Positions 37,846 to 55,849 of a stretch of DNA of 64,000 nucleotides are shown one piece after another (position 1 is the stretch's first letter; each line of letters opens with the position of its first letter). The DNA is taken from IMG/VR virus record IMGVR_UViG_3300026493_000016, positions 1 through 64,000 of that record. One strand, 5' to 3'. The position numbers and the translations under genes are program-made. The notes beneath the pieces are model-generated. The model did not search any database, was not told the DNA's origin, and was given only the letters and a program-made list of their open reading frames with translations. The DNA comes from a virus.

Positions 37846-38049
37846 ATGATAACACTGTATATGATTACTACTTTAATTGTAATGGGGTGGGGTGTTAAAG
37901 TAATCTGGTATATGTGCGAGGATGTTATAACGGACCCAGACCCTCCATCAGATACTCATGTAGCATATATCATTGTTATGGTAGTACTTGTTTCATTTAT
38001 GGAAGTAGGTTTGTCAGGATTACTTGCAATGTTCTGGAGTATGTGGTAA
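37846..38049 (+). CDS. Two-TM membrane protein
   Basis: Hydrophobic. Confidence 0.7.
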   Translation: MITLYMITTLIVMGWGVKVIWYMCEDVITDPDPPSDTHVAYIIVMVVLVSFMEVGLSGLLAMFWSMW

Positions 38050-38082
38050 GATATACTTATAAATAGATATGGGGTAGGTATT

Positions 38083-38274
38083 ATGGGTTTACTGTTTGTT
38101 CTCGTTATGATGGGAGTAGGTATATACTTCCTTAAGTTAGTATGGGATTACGTATCAATATTCGGACTAAAGCTAAACGGAACATCTGTTCTGCTTATTA
38201 TTTTAAGCGTATTAATTTTTTGTCTGGAAATTTTCCTAATATGGGTACTTGCAATTGCTTCTAGAATGTTGTAA
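38083..38274 (+). CDS. Two-TM membrane protein
   Basis: Hydrophobic. Confidence 0.65.
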   Translation: MGLLFVLVMMGVGIYFLKLVWDYVSIFGLKLNGTSVLLIILSVLIFCLEIFLIWVLAIASRML

Positions 38275-38301
38275 AATAAAAGTATAGGGGGTGGGTATCT
38301 A

Positions 38302-38496
38302 GTGATAATCTCAATACTACAGACTATACTATTTCTTTCAATGATAGCTGTTTGTCCGATGCTACTATATGTAGCTTGTGTAAGACTAAAAACTGAGACG
38401 GTAGGAGATAAATTATTTGTGGGGGCGGTAATAGTCCTTACATTAGCTGCTGAAGTAATATTGTATTCATCGTTTACGATGCTGTCTACTATATAA
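38302..38496 (+). CDS. Two-TM membrane protein
   Basis: Hydrophobic. Confidence 0.65.
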   Translation: MIISILQTILFLSMIAVCPMLLYVACVRLKTETVGDKLFVGAVIVLTLAAEVILYSSFTMLSTI

Positions 38497-38649
38497 AACT
38501 TTTTCTCAGTCTCAAAAATTTTTACCTCAGGTACAGTGGGGTACAAATAATACTTGACATTTGTATGGGAATTTGGTAGGGGCGGGGTTATAGCACATCT
38601 GGTCGAGTATGTCAAGTATGCACATCGAATTAAATTTGTCAACTAATAA

Positions 38650-38671
38650 TTGGAGGGGGTACCCCCTCCAA
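38650..38671. terminator. Perfect 22-bp palindrome between convergent transcription units
   Basis: TTGGAGGGGGTACCCCCTCCAA. Confidence 0.7.
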
Positions 38672-38675
38672 TATA

Positions 38676-39011
38676 CTATTTATTCCATTTGCGCAAATTG
38701 TCTATTAAGTCCTCACACGCTCTGTCTATATGCTTTAATCCGCTATCCGTAACGTGTTCACCCTTAACCACTCCTGACACTACTGCACTAATACGCTTGG
38801 ACACATAGCCAGCCTCAATCGTAGCAAGTTCACGCTTTAAGCCGCTCATACCCTTACCTATAAGGTTGATAGCGTCCACTATACCCACGTGCATATGAGC
38901 AGGTAATACAACCGAGTATGTCTTTCTAGTAGTGTACATAGCACCAAGCACCTCAGCATGCTTAGCAATAGTTTCAAGTTCAATAATAGCCAGTTCTATA
39001 TTAGCGTTCAT
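38676..39011 (-). CDS. Hypothetical protein
   Basis: 111 aa, AAGGATGG RBS. Confidence 0.7.
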   Translation of the reverse strand: MNANIELAIIELETIAKHAEVLGAMYTTRKTYSVVLPAHMHVGIVDAINLIGKGMSGLKRELATIEAGYVSKRISAVVSGVVKGEHVTDSGLKHIDRACEDLIDNLRKWNK

Positions 39012-39075
39012 AGTAATCCCATCCTTATATAATAGTATTTGTCAAGCGTTAATTATAAGGGGCTCAGCGCCCCGA

Positions 39076-39591
39076 CTAGCAAGTGTATACTGATACTGCA
39101 CCTTCGATATCGAAGTACTTTTTAAGCTTCGTACGCATCGCCTTAGCTGCCTTAACTGCTTCCTTCTCATTGTAGTACGTACCGAAGTATACGCAGAACA
39201 TATAATTCCCATTCTCATCATATGCAGAGAATTCGCAGTCATATACTTCCTCTCCGTCTTCGTCGTTATTATATACCATAACTGTATGGTAGTCAGCGTC
39301 TTCCCATTGCTCCGCTAACTCCTCTTTATATTCTGCTTTAATAGCAGTAATATTCTTGACATCATATGGAAGTTTAACCTCTTTAGTTTCTTCCTTAACC
39401 GGATGCACTAAAGACATTTTATCGTTATCTAAATCAATTGGGAACCAGTCTAAACCATTGTCAACCCATGCAATATTACCAGCGTCATTTAAGTCAACCA
39501 TACGTCCAGTGAAAGAACGTCCATCTAAAGTAGTAACCATTACCTCTTGATTCATCATATCAACCGCATTAATTGTGTTAGTCATTTTCAT
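39076..39591 (-). CDS. Acidic hypothetical protein with N-terminal Sm/SH3-like domain
   Basis: 171 aa; VMVTTLDGRSFTGRMVD is Sm-like. Confidence 0.75.
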   Translation of the reverse strand: MKMTNTINAVDMMNQEVMVTTLDGRSFTGRMVDLNDAGNIAWVDNGLDWFPIDLDNDKMSLVHPVKEETKEVKLPYDVKNITAIKAEYKEELAEQWEDADYHTVMVYNNDEDGEEVYDCEFSAYDENGNYMFCVYFGTYYNEKEAVKAAKAMRTKLKKYFDIEGAVSVYTC

Positions 39592-39698
39592 CTACCATCC
39601 TTCGTTATGTAAGCTAGCAAGGTGTTTCCCTGCTGCTCTTATAATATCTCATATATCGACGGCAATTGCAAGCACTATTCTTAAAGTAAAACTATTCA

Positions 39699-40837
39699 TA
39701 ATTGTCAGAATCTTTTATACAATTAAATTGTCAGAATATTACGAATAAACTATTAACTTGACATAAGTCTAATAGTATGATAGATACACGCACGCACACT
39801 CATGCAATATAATAGGGCATTCTAATTGTCAGATAGTTTGAATTGTCTGATAACTTCCCATAACATACTATTGGCTGTTTGTCAAATCTTATTTAAGAGC
39901 CCTCACAAGCCCGTACAGCGATTCTAGGATATCCCACTAGTATTTGTATTAGGAAGGCTGCTAGAAGCCCATACAGAGCAAATAGCCTCCCAAGCCAGTC
40001 ATACCAAGGGCTCACAAATTGACAGACTATTCTAACAGCTTACCATTGTCAGATAATTCATACTATTCTAATTGTCAGAATATTAAGACTGCTATTACTA
40101 TCACATACACTGCTCCTTGTCAAGTATACAGTGTATTCTAAATTGTCTGATAACTTGAATAGTCTGATAACTTAACAGCAGTTCAGTCACCCAACAATTG
40201 TCAGAATATTCACGCTAGTGATAATTGTTTGAAAAGTCTGACTAACATAATAGTTCGAATTGTCAGTTAATTCTATTGTACACCTCTACAATTGTCAGAC
40301 TATTTGAAACATTCATACTGTTCAAACTGTCAGACTATTCACAATATACCGAACATTCTAATTGTCAGACTATTCAATCATTCGCAATTATCAGACTATT
40401 CATAATAATCAAACAAAAATCACCGAGGGTTTTTAAATAAATTATCAGACAATTCAAATAAATCCGAACAATGGCAATATTTAGAGCATTTTAATAGTCA
40501 GACTATTTAGAACATTCATACTATTAACGCAATTGGCAATATACTAGCTATTCTTATTGTCAGACTATTCATACAACTTACCTACATGTATATTGTCGGA
40601 CTATTTAGAACATACTAATTGTCAGACTAATCTTTTAACTTGACAAACTGCCTCATCTGTGGTATTTATACGTGAGCTAATTGTCAGACTACTCAATTTG
40701 TCAGAATACTTACAATATTACGCGTATTCGACAGCACTTTACATGCGTCAACATAAATGATATTCTTATGGAGCAGGACGAATAAATATTTGTCGTCTTG
40801 TGTAGCAGAGGTATAACGACTGAATTGTCAGATAACT
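39699..40837 (+). repeat. Array of about 23 degenerate 15-bp repeats AATTGTCAGA(A/C)TATT (CodY-box-like)
   Basis: Exact AATTGTCAGAATATT at 39726, 40070, 40196; AATTGTCAGACTATT at 40290, 40360; many variants; no ORF in the region. Confidence 0.9.
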
Positions 40838-40972
40838 GCTAATAGTACGATGGGCTTGTTTGCTCATGTACTAAATGGGACAAGGTATACAATTGCCCAT
40901 GTGTTCTAGGGAGCTACTAAGCAACCTCGAGCCTTTCCAGTGAGCTACTAGTAGATTTAATGATTACATAAG

Positions 40973-41010
40973 AAAAGCCCCGCAATCGCTGCGAGGGCTC
41001 TTTTGTTGTT
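40973..41010. terminator. Bidirectional terminator-like hairpin
   Basis: AAAAGCCCCGCAATCGCTGCGAGGGCTCTTTT. Confidence 0.65.
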
Positions 41011-41305
41011 CATAATACATTTGTACTAGTTAGTTTGTAAAACGACGTGTAACGGAGTGTGAGACACCTTAAAACACCTGTACAAGTTTGCAGAACGGGC
41101 ATATACTCGTGTACAAGGATGCAATCTACTCTATCTAGCATGAAGCGTGTATCCGAGAAAAACCTGAGGCTCTGATATCAGTCTTTCAATTAGTTGTTCT
41201 GATATAACTCTTTAGGGAGGCTCTGATATAGTGTTATTGTAATGATTGATATTAATTAGTTATTGTAAGGCTTCTTATTGCCTCTCTGTACGCTATTGCA
41301 TCAGT

Positions 41306-41596
41306 CTAGTGTAATACAATCCCCTTAACACTGATAAGCTCATACAAAGGAAGTGTGAACGCCTCACTGTTATTATCCGTGAATTCTACCCATGAATTAT
41401 GTTGTTCATGTACATCATATATAATACGTTCTAGTTTAACTAAGTCCGATGTGATAAACTCACGTACCTTAGAATCATTACCCATTATCTTATACTCCCT
41501 ATATACAATATGGAAGTGTGTTGCATCTTCCTTTAATGCTTGTAATAGTTCTTGCCATTCCATAACCATTGTTGATGAATAGTATTTGATTGCCAT
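41306..41596 (-). CDS. Hypothetical protein (paralog of 42809-43090)
   Basis: 96 aa. Confidence 0.7.
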   Translation of the reverse strand: MAIKYYSSTMVMEWQELLQALKEDATHFHIVYREYKIMGNDSKVREFITSDLVKLERIIYDVHEQHNSWVEFTDNNSEAFTLPLYELISVKGIVLH

Positions 41597-42094
41597 TTAT
41601 AACACTTCCTTATATAGTTCTATTCTTTTATCACGTGCTCTTTGTTCTTCTAATAAAGTCGCCACACCTCTATACACGGGATGATTATATTTTACGTTAT
41701 CTTTGTTTTTATTATTCATTAAACTTAATCGAATATCTATTACCGTTTGTATTAATGTAATCGCCTCATCAATTGGAACTGTTACAAATACGCGTTCTTC
41801 TAAAGGGTGTGCGAATACTGTTGTTTCTTTCAATGTTTGTTCGAAATCCATTTTGATGTGTATAAGCATCCAACCTACCGCCTCATCAAAGCTATTGAAG
41901 TTACAATTGAGTTGCTTAATGTCTTTGACTGATTCAGTTGCTTTCTGTATCCATACTTGTTCTTTAATGCTTAGTTGTTGTACAGTGTCTACATTGATTG
42001 TATAATCTGTATGCCCTGTTTGTAAGTAGAGCATGATATGTTTTAATGCTAAACGTTTAATAACTGTTAACTCATGACCTTCGAAACTGTACAT
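41597..42094 (-). CDS. Hypothetical protein
   Basis: 165 aa, AAGGAG RBS. Confidence 0.75.
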   Translation of the reverse strand: MYSFEGHELTVIKRLALKHIMLYLQTGHTDYTINVDTVQQLSIKEQVWIQKATESVKDIKQLNCNFNSFDEAVGWMLIHIKMDFEQTLKETTVFAHPLEERVFVTVPIDEAITLIQTVIDIRLSLMNNKNKDNVKYNHPVYRGVATLLEEQRARDKRIELYKEVL

Positions 42095-55310: not shown

Positions 55311-55345
55311 AAATAAAAAAGCCTGACAGAATTGTCAGACTCTTT
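55311..55345 (-). terminator. Terminator hairpin
   Basis: GTCTGACAATTCTGTCAGGC followed by TTTTTTATTT on minus strand. Confidence 0.7.
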
Positions 55346-55396
55346 ATAACTACCACTATTATTCTTGGTCGGCGCCTCTTGTGTTCCAGTGAGCTA

Positions 55397-55849
55397 CTAG
55401 TCAAATGAACCGCATGAATCTGAGGAGCTACTAGAACCCCCTCCGTCGTCATTGTAACTGCGCCCACAACTTGGAGCTGGTGAGCTACTAGGCGTATACG
55501 TCGGTGTGTTAGGTGATGTAAAGAACGACACACTCAAATCATCTCTATCATCCCAGTTCTTACGCGTATCTTTAGGTCTAGTAGGTGTAGGTGGTCTCTT
55601 TACATGAAGCCTAAACCCTTTATCACTCAATGGTGTTTTATGTTTGCTAGGGTTAAAGTTACTCTTAATTAGATACTCTCGCGTCTCTCGTCTAACCTCT
55701 TCCAACCTAGCTTTATTATTCGCCTCAACAGCGTCATTCATGTCCTTACTTAATCGTCTATCCTTGTTCTTTGGAGGTGTACTATTAGAATACATACGCA
55801 CAATAAAGTATATTGCACACAGTCCAAAGAATGCTAATAAGATACTCAT
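55397..55849 (-). CDS. Membrane-anchored protein with Ser/Gly/Asp-rich tail
   Basis: N-terminal TM; DDGGGSSSSSDSCGSFD. Confidence 0.75.
   Translation of the reverse strand: MSILLAFFGLCAIYFIVRMYSNSTPPKNKDRRLSKDMNDAVEANNKARLEEVRRETREYLIKSNFNPSKHKTPLSDKGFRLHVKRPPTPTRPKDTRKNWDDRDDLSVSFFTSPNTPTYTPSSSPAPSCGRSYNDDGGGSSSSSDSCGSFD

Follow-up and report, generated by a model that had tools for sequence, protein, structure and literature searches.

The window considered here is the whole stretch of viral DNA that was analysed, 64,000 nucleotides corresponding to positions 1 to 64,000 of the IMG/VR virus record IMGVR_UViG_3300026493_000016. At 39700-40837 it contains an array of 23 distinct 15-bp near-palindromic sites, referred to below as boxes, with the consensus AATTGTCAGA(C/A)TATT, which resemble the operators of the host global regulator CodY. 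An initial annotation of this DNA had reported about 23 such sites in a gene-free tract, and both points hold, as no open reading frame (ORF) of 60 amino acids or more is present in the tract 39592-41305. The same annotation described the sites as co-oriented, which is true of the 20 boxes on the plus strand and does not extend to the three on the minus strand. Boxes were defined as matches to AATTGTCAGACTATT with no more than three mismatches, and start at the following positions.

Box starts, plus strand, first part: 39700, 39726, 39824, 40017, 40044, 40070, 40196, 40258, 40290, 40325
Box starts, plus strand, remainder: 40360, 40386, 40440, 40493, 40555, 40591, 40617, 40679, 40696, 40823
Box starts, minus strand: 39841, 40141, 40158
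Additional weaker CodY-like box: 40223

The boxes are strongly concentrated in this tract. Their core, TTGTCAGA, has 16 copies in the window compared with 3.2 ± 1.6 in shuffled sequences, and 13 of the 16 copies fall inside the tract; a wider family, AATTDTCWGAMWATT with at most one mismatch, gives 21 matches in the tract and a single one outside. Across all 145,872 bp of the phage record, a position weight matrix built from the sites has one strong match outside the tract, at 55330. The information in this matrix is restricted to positions 1-15, apart from a weaker one-sided tail (C16, A17, A19 and A22). Traces of duplication are visible within the array, as a 62-bp periodicity at 40493, 40555, 40617 and 40679 and as the repeat families D1-D3. 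The lone box at 55330-55344 was considered as an autoregulatory operator and rejected, since it forms one arm of a terminator hairpin, with an 8-bp stem (GTCTGACA-attc-TGTCAGgC) followed by a T run, just downstream of the ORF at 55397-55849.

Resemblance to CodY operators was measured as the number of mismatches to the CodY consensus, AATTTTCWGAAAATT, and by comparison with the published braB operators of Bacillus subtilis. The box shares with this consensus its 15-bp length, its 7-1-7 pseudo-palindromic arrangement and the central C-W-G. Four of the 23 sites have two mismatches, ten have three, eight have four and one has five (mean 3.3), so that the best copies are indeed two mismatches from the CodY consensus, as initially claimed, while a copy of the array's own consensus has three. 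Functional CodY sites may carry up to five mismatches (PMC10415144). Across the genome, 21 positions match AATTTTCWGAAAATT with three mismatches or fewer, and 15 of these lie in the tract, which makes up 0.8% of the genome length; the sites are therefore above background. Two bases of CodY motifs, G9 and A10, have been described as ‘very highly conserved’ (PMC4608796). The bases expected at the core of a CodY site (C7, G9, A10 and the outer T) are near-invariant in the array, with C7, G9 and T15 present in 23/23 sites and A10 in 22/23.

The closest published counterparts are found at braB, where the strong motif 3 reads AATTgaCAGAAtATT and motif 2 reads tATTaTCTGAcAATT (PMC4608796). Motif 3 differs by one base from three copies in the array: braB-3, AATTGACAGAATATT, is to be compared with AATTGTCAGAATATT, which is present three times in the window, and with AATTGACAGACTATT at 40017. 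Likewise, braB-2, TATTATCTGACAATT, compares with boxes of the AATTATCAGACAATT type, and motif 2 shows the C11 variant of the array. Spo0A, TnrA/GlnR, Fur, DnaA and ScoC sites and a sigma-E promoter were also considered as the identity of the box, and none of these, in its generally known form, fits.

The spacing of the boxes had been called irregular, and here the description needs correction. Eighteen of the 20 adjacent spacings are equal to 8 modulo 9 (17, 26, 35, 53 or 62 bp) or to 0 modulo 9 (27, 36 or 54 bp), with a binomial P of 2e-10. Autocorrelation of CodY-likeness along the array has peaks at lags of 9, 17/18, 26/27, 35/36, 44/45, 53/54, 62 and 71, and at lags of 9, 17, 26 and 35 the array scores higher than any of 200 control segments taken from the genome. 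Furthermore, a weak second box is detectable at an offset of +9 and only there (mean 6.6 mismatches, against 8-12 at every other offset). CodY dimers are known to cooperate on boxes offset by exactly 9 nt, with possible extension into higher oligomers, and one extra base pair lowers the affinity whilst two abolish cooperativity (PMC10415144).

Four predicted sigma-A promoters lie within the array, all of the form TTGACA-17 nt-TRTGnTAnnnn. They are conserved among related phages, the -35 hexamer and the TRTG element of P2 being kept in six, and the embedded promoters of the initial annotation are supported as predictions.

39758..39786, plus strand: predicted promoter P2; TTGACA (-35 at 39758), 17-nt spacer ending in TATGA, then TAGATA
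39857..39885, minus strand: predicted promoter P4; TTGACA (-35 at 39885-39880), 17-nt spacer with TATGT, then TATGGG
40095..40123, minus strand: predicted promoter P5; TTGACA (-35 at 40123-40118), 17-nt spacer with TGTGA, then TAGTAA
40640..40668, plus strand: predicted promoter P3; TTGACA (-35 at 40640), 17-nt spacer with TGTGG, then TATTTA
40675..41010, plus strand: predicted non-coding transcript of about 330 nt, from P3 to a bidirectional terminator

Boxes are found at about +4 to +45 of the predicted P3, P4 and P5, and upstream of all four promoters at about -44 to -93. At P3, boxes 40679 and 40696 occupy about +4 to +35, and 9 nt separate the end of box 40617, upstream, from the -35 hexamer. 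The predicted start of P4, a promoter that faces the two genes of the terminal repeat described below, is covered by box 39841. P5 has boxes 40070, 40044 and 40017 at about +4 to +72, with boxes 40141 and 40158 upstream, and P2 has boxes at about -93 and -67 and at +31 and +48 relative to its predicted start, the downstream pair spanning about +31 to +62. Thus the placement typical of CodY operators, at or just downstream of a promoter, is seen at each of the predicted promoters P2-P5. P4 and P2 together make up an inverted repeat, I2. The transcript from P3 would end at the bidirectional terminator, a hairpin at 40977-40999 followed by a T run, and its predicted fold has a z-score of -2.5. 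The possibility that the boxes themselves are -35 elements for sigma-A, by virtue of TTGTCA, was rejected: this resemblance inflates a promoter scan, and the -10 elements downstream are inconsistent.

In the six-phage alignment, window bases inside boxes are common to 81% of the other phages, compared with 58.5% for those between boxes. The bases of the boxes are kept above those of the spacers, and selection therefore acts on the sites. Between 10 and 22 copies of the box are present in the equivalent tract of Wphvirus, Bastillevirus, Bequatrovirus and Tsarbombavirus (BCP78) phages and of LY2, even where the tracts themselves can no longer be aligned. In Listeria phage A511 (NC_009811), four boxes are clustered at 31.7-32.1 kb, and in phages phiNIT1 (NC_021856) and phiAGATE (NC_020081) a single box is located 72-86 bp from the physical genome end. 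No box was found in SPO1 (NC_011421), for which the reversed control gave nine hits; in SPO1 DNA, hydroxymethyluracil replaces thymine.

The same boxes are present well beyond these relatives. A pattern scan of IMG/VR recovered them in many metagenomic viral contigs, and three complete metagenomic phage genomes, of 181, 92 and 123 kb, have 18-31 exact matches to AATTKTCWGAMWATT where the control has none. In these three genomes the boxes form clusters where genes are sparse and promoters and terminators abundant, spacings of 9, 18, 27, 36 and 45 bp dominate, and many pairs overlap with an offset of 9 nt; one such pair, AATTGTCAGAATATTCTGAAAATT, matches the optimised CodY double site at 22 of 24 positions. 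The number of ORFs in common with the phage studied here is 0 for the 181-kb genome (of which the first 160 kb were searched), 7 for the 92-kb genome and 3 for the 123-kb genome, and none is present in all. Since phages with such arrays have almost no genes in common, a shared phage-encoded binder is unlikely. In a further metagenomic contig (L032), one or two boxes lie about 20 nt upstream of the -35 element of a strong sigma-A promoter at nearly every small gene, and the exact CodY consensus is among the box family of this contig. When positions 5, 11 and 12 are disregarded in detecting boxes, these three positions are seen to differ by lineage, with the CodY-invariant positions fixed: G5 and T12 prevail in Wphvirus, whilst T5, C11 and A12 do so in Hoody T-like phages and several metagenomic phages. 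This is the pattern that a tolerant common reader, combined with homogenisation within arrays, would be expected to give.

Boxes were also found on bacterial chromosomes. In eleven Enterococcus genome records, mostly of named avium-group species, AATTGTCAGAATATT and AATTATCAGAATATT are both present at a matching spacing, 33 bp apart. At the one locus examined, in E. avium, the two boxes lie just upstream of a gene for an amino-acid permease of the APC family, whose promoter is likely to be regulated by CodY. Matches in metagenome-assembled genomes (MAGs) of the cyanobacterium Okeania sp. (L071 and L085) were rejected as coincidental, as they belong to a different repeat, of 20 bp in tandem, that contains AATTGTCAGAAYATT.

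Box loci in Enterococcus: L068 6103-6150 (E. avium), L069, L070, L077-L081, L083, L084

The position of the array in the genome can be predicted from its relatives. The tract is about 70% identical to positions 242-1520 of about 40 records of myoviruses from the Bacillus cereus group, with partial alignment to others, 95 in all; the aligned phages are Bastillevirinae, mostly Wphvirus. We predict that the array is the non-coding part of the direct terminal repeat of a Wphvirus-like Bastillevirinae myovirus. In the records of Kida and BJ4, position 1 aligns to 41165 of the window, which places the predicted physical genome end at 41165/41166. The inner end of the repeat_region annotated in BJ4 (1-2823) aligns to 38528/38529, and the layout of Spock, with a repeat_region at 1-2800, is the same. 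The repeat contains the terminal block, the bidirectional terminator, the box array and two small leftward genes.

38529..41165: predicted direct terminal repeat, 2,637 bp, represented in the assembly by a single collapsed copy
38676..39011, minus strand: second terminal-repeat gene, 111 amino acids, phrog_2782
39076..39591, minus strand: first terminal-repeat gene, 171-amino-acid very acidic protein, phrog_2236
39877..40009: box-free, G+C-richer element of 130 nt
41002..41165: terminal block, ending at the predicted genome end in CCTGAGG
40904, 40935, 55384, 55861, 57120 and 60552 in the window, and 113854 in the genome, plus strand: copies of the 16-nt motif TTCYAGKGAGCTACTA

Both predicted boundaries of the repeat lie inside a palindrome of the form CCTNAGG, namely CCTCAGG at 38525-38531 and CCTGAGG at 41163-41169, and the annotated inner boundary in BJ4 carries an identical sequence of this type. 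The terminal block is 85-97% conserved over most of its length, falling to 74% in 41092-41121 and dropping near the cut. CCTNAGG is likely to be the terminase cleavage signal, and the terminal block with this motif is a better candidate for a terminase or end signal than are the boxes, the last of which lies 330 bp from the repeat boundary with its CCTNAGG motif. A short hairpin-forming motif at the termini is mentioned in the description of phage Thurquoise (PMC10043171).

The phrog_2236 gene directly follows the array in 98 phages of the B. cereus group, in which the identity of its protein falls to as low as 31%. Encoded beside an array that binds a regulator, such an acidic early protein might serve as a DNA mimic or in host takeover. 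For the two terminal-repeat genes and the leftward genes checked at 41.3-47.5 kb, there was no Pfam match above the curated cut-off, and Pfam and PHROGs together gave only families of unknown function, with no DNA-binding domain. The box-free element at 39877-40009 is the only part of the tract for which BLAST still gives an alignment to Bequatrovirus phages and LY2, at 72-80% identity; GCCCRTACAG occurs in it twice, with GGGCTCACAA / GCCCTCACAA at its edges. It was considered as a structured RNA and rejected, because the energies of alignment folds were weak and covariation was slight, whichever strand was folded. An Rfam scan of 38000-42000 (E <= 1), which takes in the predicted P3 transcript, had no match. 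All seven genomic copies of TTCYAGKGAGCTACTA are on the plus strand, and the reversed control has none. The copies at 40904 and 40935 are in the predicted P3 transcript, and those at 55384 and 55861 are intergenic in the leftward gene block, where a copy of the motif adjoins the terminator hairpin at 55330. Additional copies are present in Kida and BJ4.

Considering what might read these boxes, we judge it probable, though well short of assured, that the array is a dense set of CodY-type operators read by host CodY and serving a regulatory role. Host CodY is favoured as the reader because no candidate for a phage-encoded binder was found: the CodY-type helix-turn-helix (HTH) domain PF08222 has no match in the whole phage genome, and the annotated HTH protein of Bastille, considered as a shared binder, was rejected as it has no homologue in this phage. 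The initial annotation had also arrived at CodY, and that part of its account is supported by the sequence match, the 9-bp ladder, the likeness to braB and the boxes in unrelated phages; titration of CodY and effects on amino-acid supply, DNA entry or replication, which it attached to this, would be possible consequences.

Several observations weigh against this assignment. The consensus of the window is sharper than that of CodY and consistently off it, with G5 in 18/23, C11 in 14/23 and T12 in 16/23 sites, whilst T5 and AA at positions 11-12 never occur. Since CodY reads a narrow A/T minor groove, the array sites may be only moderate targets for it. The dominant class of spacings in the window is 9k-1 instead of the 9k of CodY, and strong overlapping pairs are absent; a spacing of 9k-1 would fit blocks of 15+9n bp set apart by 2 bp. 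The distribution of the boxes is also uneven. Just two or three are present per terminal repeat in phiNIT1 and phiAGATE, and no array was found in the Staphylococcus herellevirus and the two Enterococcus phages examined, though their hosts have CodY. In the 5.3-Mb chromosome of B. wiedmannii there are six sites with at most one mismatch to the phage variant, compared with three in the control; two of the six, AATTATCAGAAAATT, are upstream of lipoprotein genes. The metagenomic phages with arrays have only weak BLAST matches to isolates, namely Enterococcus, Staphylococcus and Fusobacterium phages. Finally, a 55-kb contig (L082) in a Bacteroidales MAG bin has five boxes within 1.2 kb. If its host is truly without CodY this contig counts against CodY, but it may instead be a mis-binned phage contig.

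Some of these points would also fit a scheme where the boxes serve as operators for a dimeric protein encoded by the phage, for example a repressor governing an early-to-middle switch, with a specificity that mimics or happens to resemble that of CodY. Such a protein would shut off or time the promoters of the terminal repeat whatever the nutrition of the host. It is common for lytic phages to repress their early promoters with a protein of their own, and a sharp consensus that departs systematically from that of CodY at G5, C11 and T12, together with the rarity of the exact variant in a host-type chromosome, is what such a protein might leave behind. The array is, moreover, always accompanied by the phrog_2236 gene, and a small, fast-evolving protein of the same specificity is possible. 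Against this, the phrog_2236 protein diverges to 31% identity around an unchanged box and is itself very acidic, and the searches for a CodY-type HTH, for Pfam domains in the terminal-repeat and leftward genes checked and for a homologue of the Bastille HTH protein all came back empty. Such a protein would also have to account for phages with 0-7 ORFs in common that use the same boxes in the same 9-bp register, and for the same boxes at matching spacing on Enterococcus chromosomes, upstream of a permease gene in E. avium. We regard a phage repressor as unlikely, whilst giving it clearly more credence than the two explanations that follow.

The location of the array, within the terminal repeat and 330 bp from the predicted physical end, raises the question of a cis-acting element for DNA handling, whether as recognition sites for the small terminase (TerS) or another end-recognition protein, as replication iterons or as an injection-stop signal like that of T5, whose terminal repeat has a repeat-rich non-coding injection-stop region. 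The single boxes 72-86 bp from the genome ends of phiNIT1 and phiAGATE, and a turn of the cumulative GC skew near 38-39 kb, point the same way. The skew turn coincides, however, with a switch in gene orientation, and the predicted cuts, at 38528/38529 and 41165/41166, each have a CCTNAGG motif of their own, with the strongly conserved block 41002-41165 adjacent to the cut, whereas boxes are present in phages with no detectable shared terminase. Nor do the boxes look like iterons: instead of direct repeats at the helical period they are palindromes, present in both orientations and set on a 9-bp ladder, and there is no adjacent initiator gene, the flanking genes having no Pfam domain. In other phages the boxes stand just upstream of individual sigma-A promoters, dispersed over kilobases of promoter-rich early regions, and in A511 they are at 31.7-32.1 kb. 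Iterons and TerS/pac sites, which the initial annotation had offered as alternatives to CodY, are thus disfavoured, and we consider a role in DNA handling very improbable. Least credible of all, in our view, is an array devoid of present function, left over after a unit that by chance included an A/T-rich palindrome had repeatedly been duplicated in tandem. Duplication has certainly contributed some copies, as the 62-bp periodicity and the D1-D3 families attest, and the co-orientation of 20 of the 23 boxes fits common descent. Yet the sites are conserved well above their spacers, the box persists across genera with unalignable tracts, unrelated phages carry it, and the spacing ladder spans different spacings instead of one repeated unit.

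If host CodY does read the array, the following scheme can be proposed. In a well-fed cell, CodY, a winged-helix repressor that senses GTP as well as branched-chain amino acids, would be active and would coat the array cooperatively, its dimers cooperating on the boxes in 9-bp steps. It would occupy the boxes at about +4 to +45 and about -44 to -83 around P2-P5 and would hold down the transcripts of the terminal repeat, which comprise those of the two repeat genes and at least one non-coding RNA. Each genome has two copies of the repeat and is itself replicated, so that the 23 boxes would also constitute a sink for CodY, and through its density and copy number the array may drain CodY off host operators. 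A stronger version holds that the array is mainly a DNA sponge, in which hundreds of replicating genomes, each with two repeats of 23 boxes, titrate CodY from the chromosome and so turn on amino-acid uptake, peptide transport and branched-chain synthesis in the host, a device that unrelated phages of Firmicutes would have evolved independently. We are doubtful of this version, and place it on much the same footing as the phage repressor.

Binding by CodY would mean that the Bastille-like Bacillus phages, a large and well-sampled group, couple the DNA that enters the cell first to the GTP and amino-acid state of the host, and that several unrelated phages do likewise, in a nutrient analogue of the use of Spo0A by phi29. 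The array would then offer a simple natural test case for the titration of a regulator by replicating phage DNA. As candidate agents for the biocontrol of B. cereus, these phages may vary in performance with how well their host is nourished. Among the papers that could be searched, for CodY in phage biology and for the exact 13-mer, none describes a lytic phage with CodY operators.

The nearest known systems are the CodY operators of Firmicutes themselves, with their 15-bp box and with 24-nt double sites at a 9-nt offset such as those at hutP, ureA and braB of B. subtilis. The array has the same box length, symmetry and C-W-G centre, a similar range of 2-5 mismatches, a 9-bp register and a location over or downstream of sigma-A promoters, and its boxes are near-identical to braB-3 and braB-2. 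It differs in packing 23 boxes into a non-coding 1.1 kb of phage DNA, where a host promoter has one to a few, and in its lineage-specific G5/C11/T12 variant, its mostly 9k-1 spacing and its lack of strong overlapping pairs. Among phages, the virulent Bacillus phages phi29 and Nf have Spo0A boxes near early promoters and genome ends that couple their development to sporulation (PMC2731898). These too are lytic Bacillus phages with several sites for a global regulator of the host, the sites in the present case being candidates for CodY. In phi29 and Nf the regulator is Spo0A~P, the site is the 0A box, the sites in phi29 are a handful and the interaction is proven by experiment, whereas here there is a whole array and the assignment is drawn from sequence. 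Promoters of alphaproteobacterial phages are reported to carry CtrA boxes, which were proposed to delay lysis or set its timing by the state of the host (PMC9437464). The CtrA-box phages place the motif of a host master regulator at individual promoters, whereas the phage studied here concentrates its boxes in one terminal-repeat tract. Many CtrA-box phages encode their own copy of CtrA; this phage, unlike them, encodes no CodY-type domain. Repeat-dense non-coding stretches tied to DNA entry or concatemer processing are familiar from T5, with its injection-stop region, and from T7, with short repeats beside its terminal repeat. The boxes of the array differ from these in being palindromes of the transcription-factor type, located at promoters and found, in other phages, outside terminal repeats as well.

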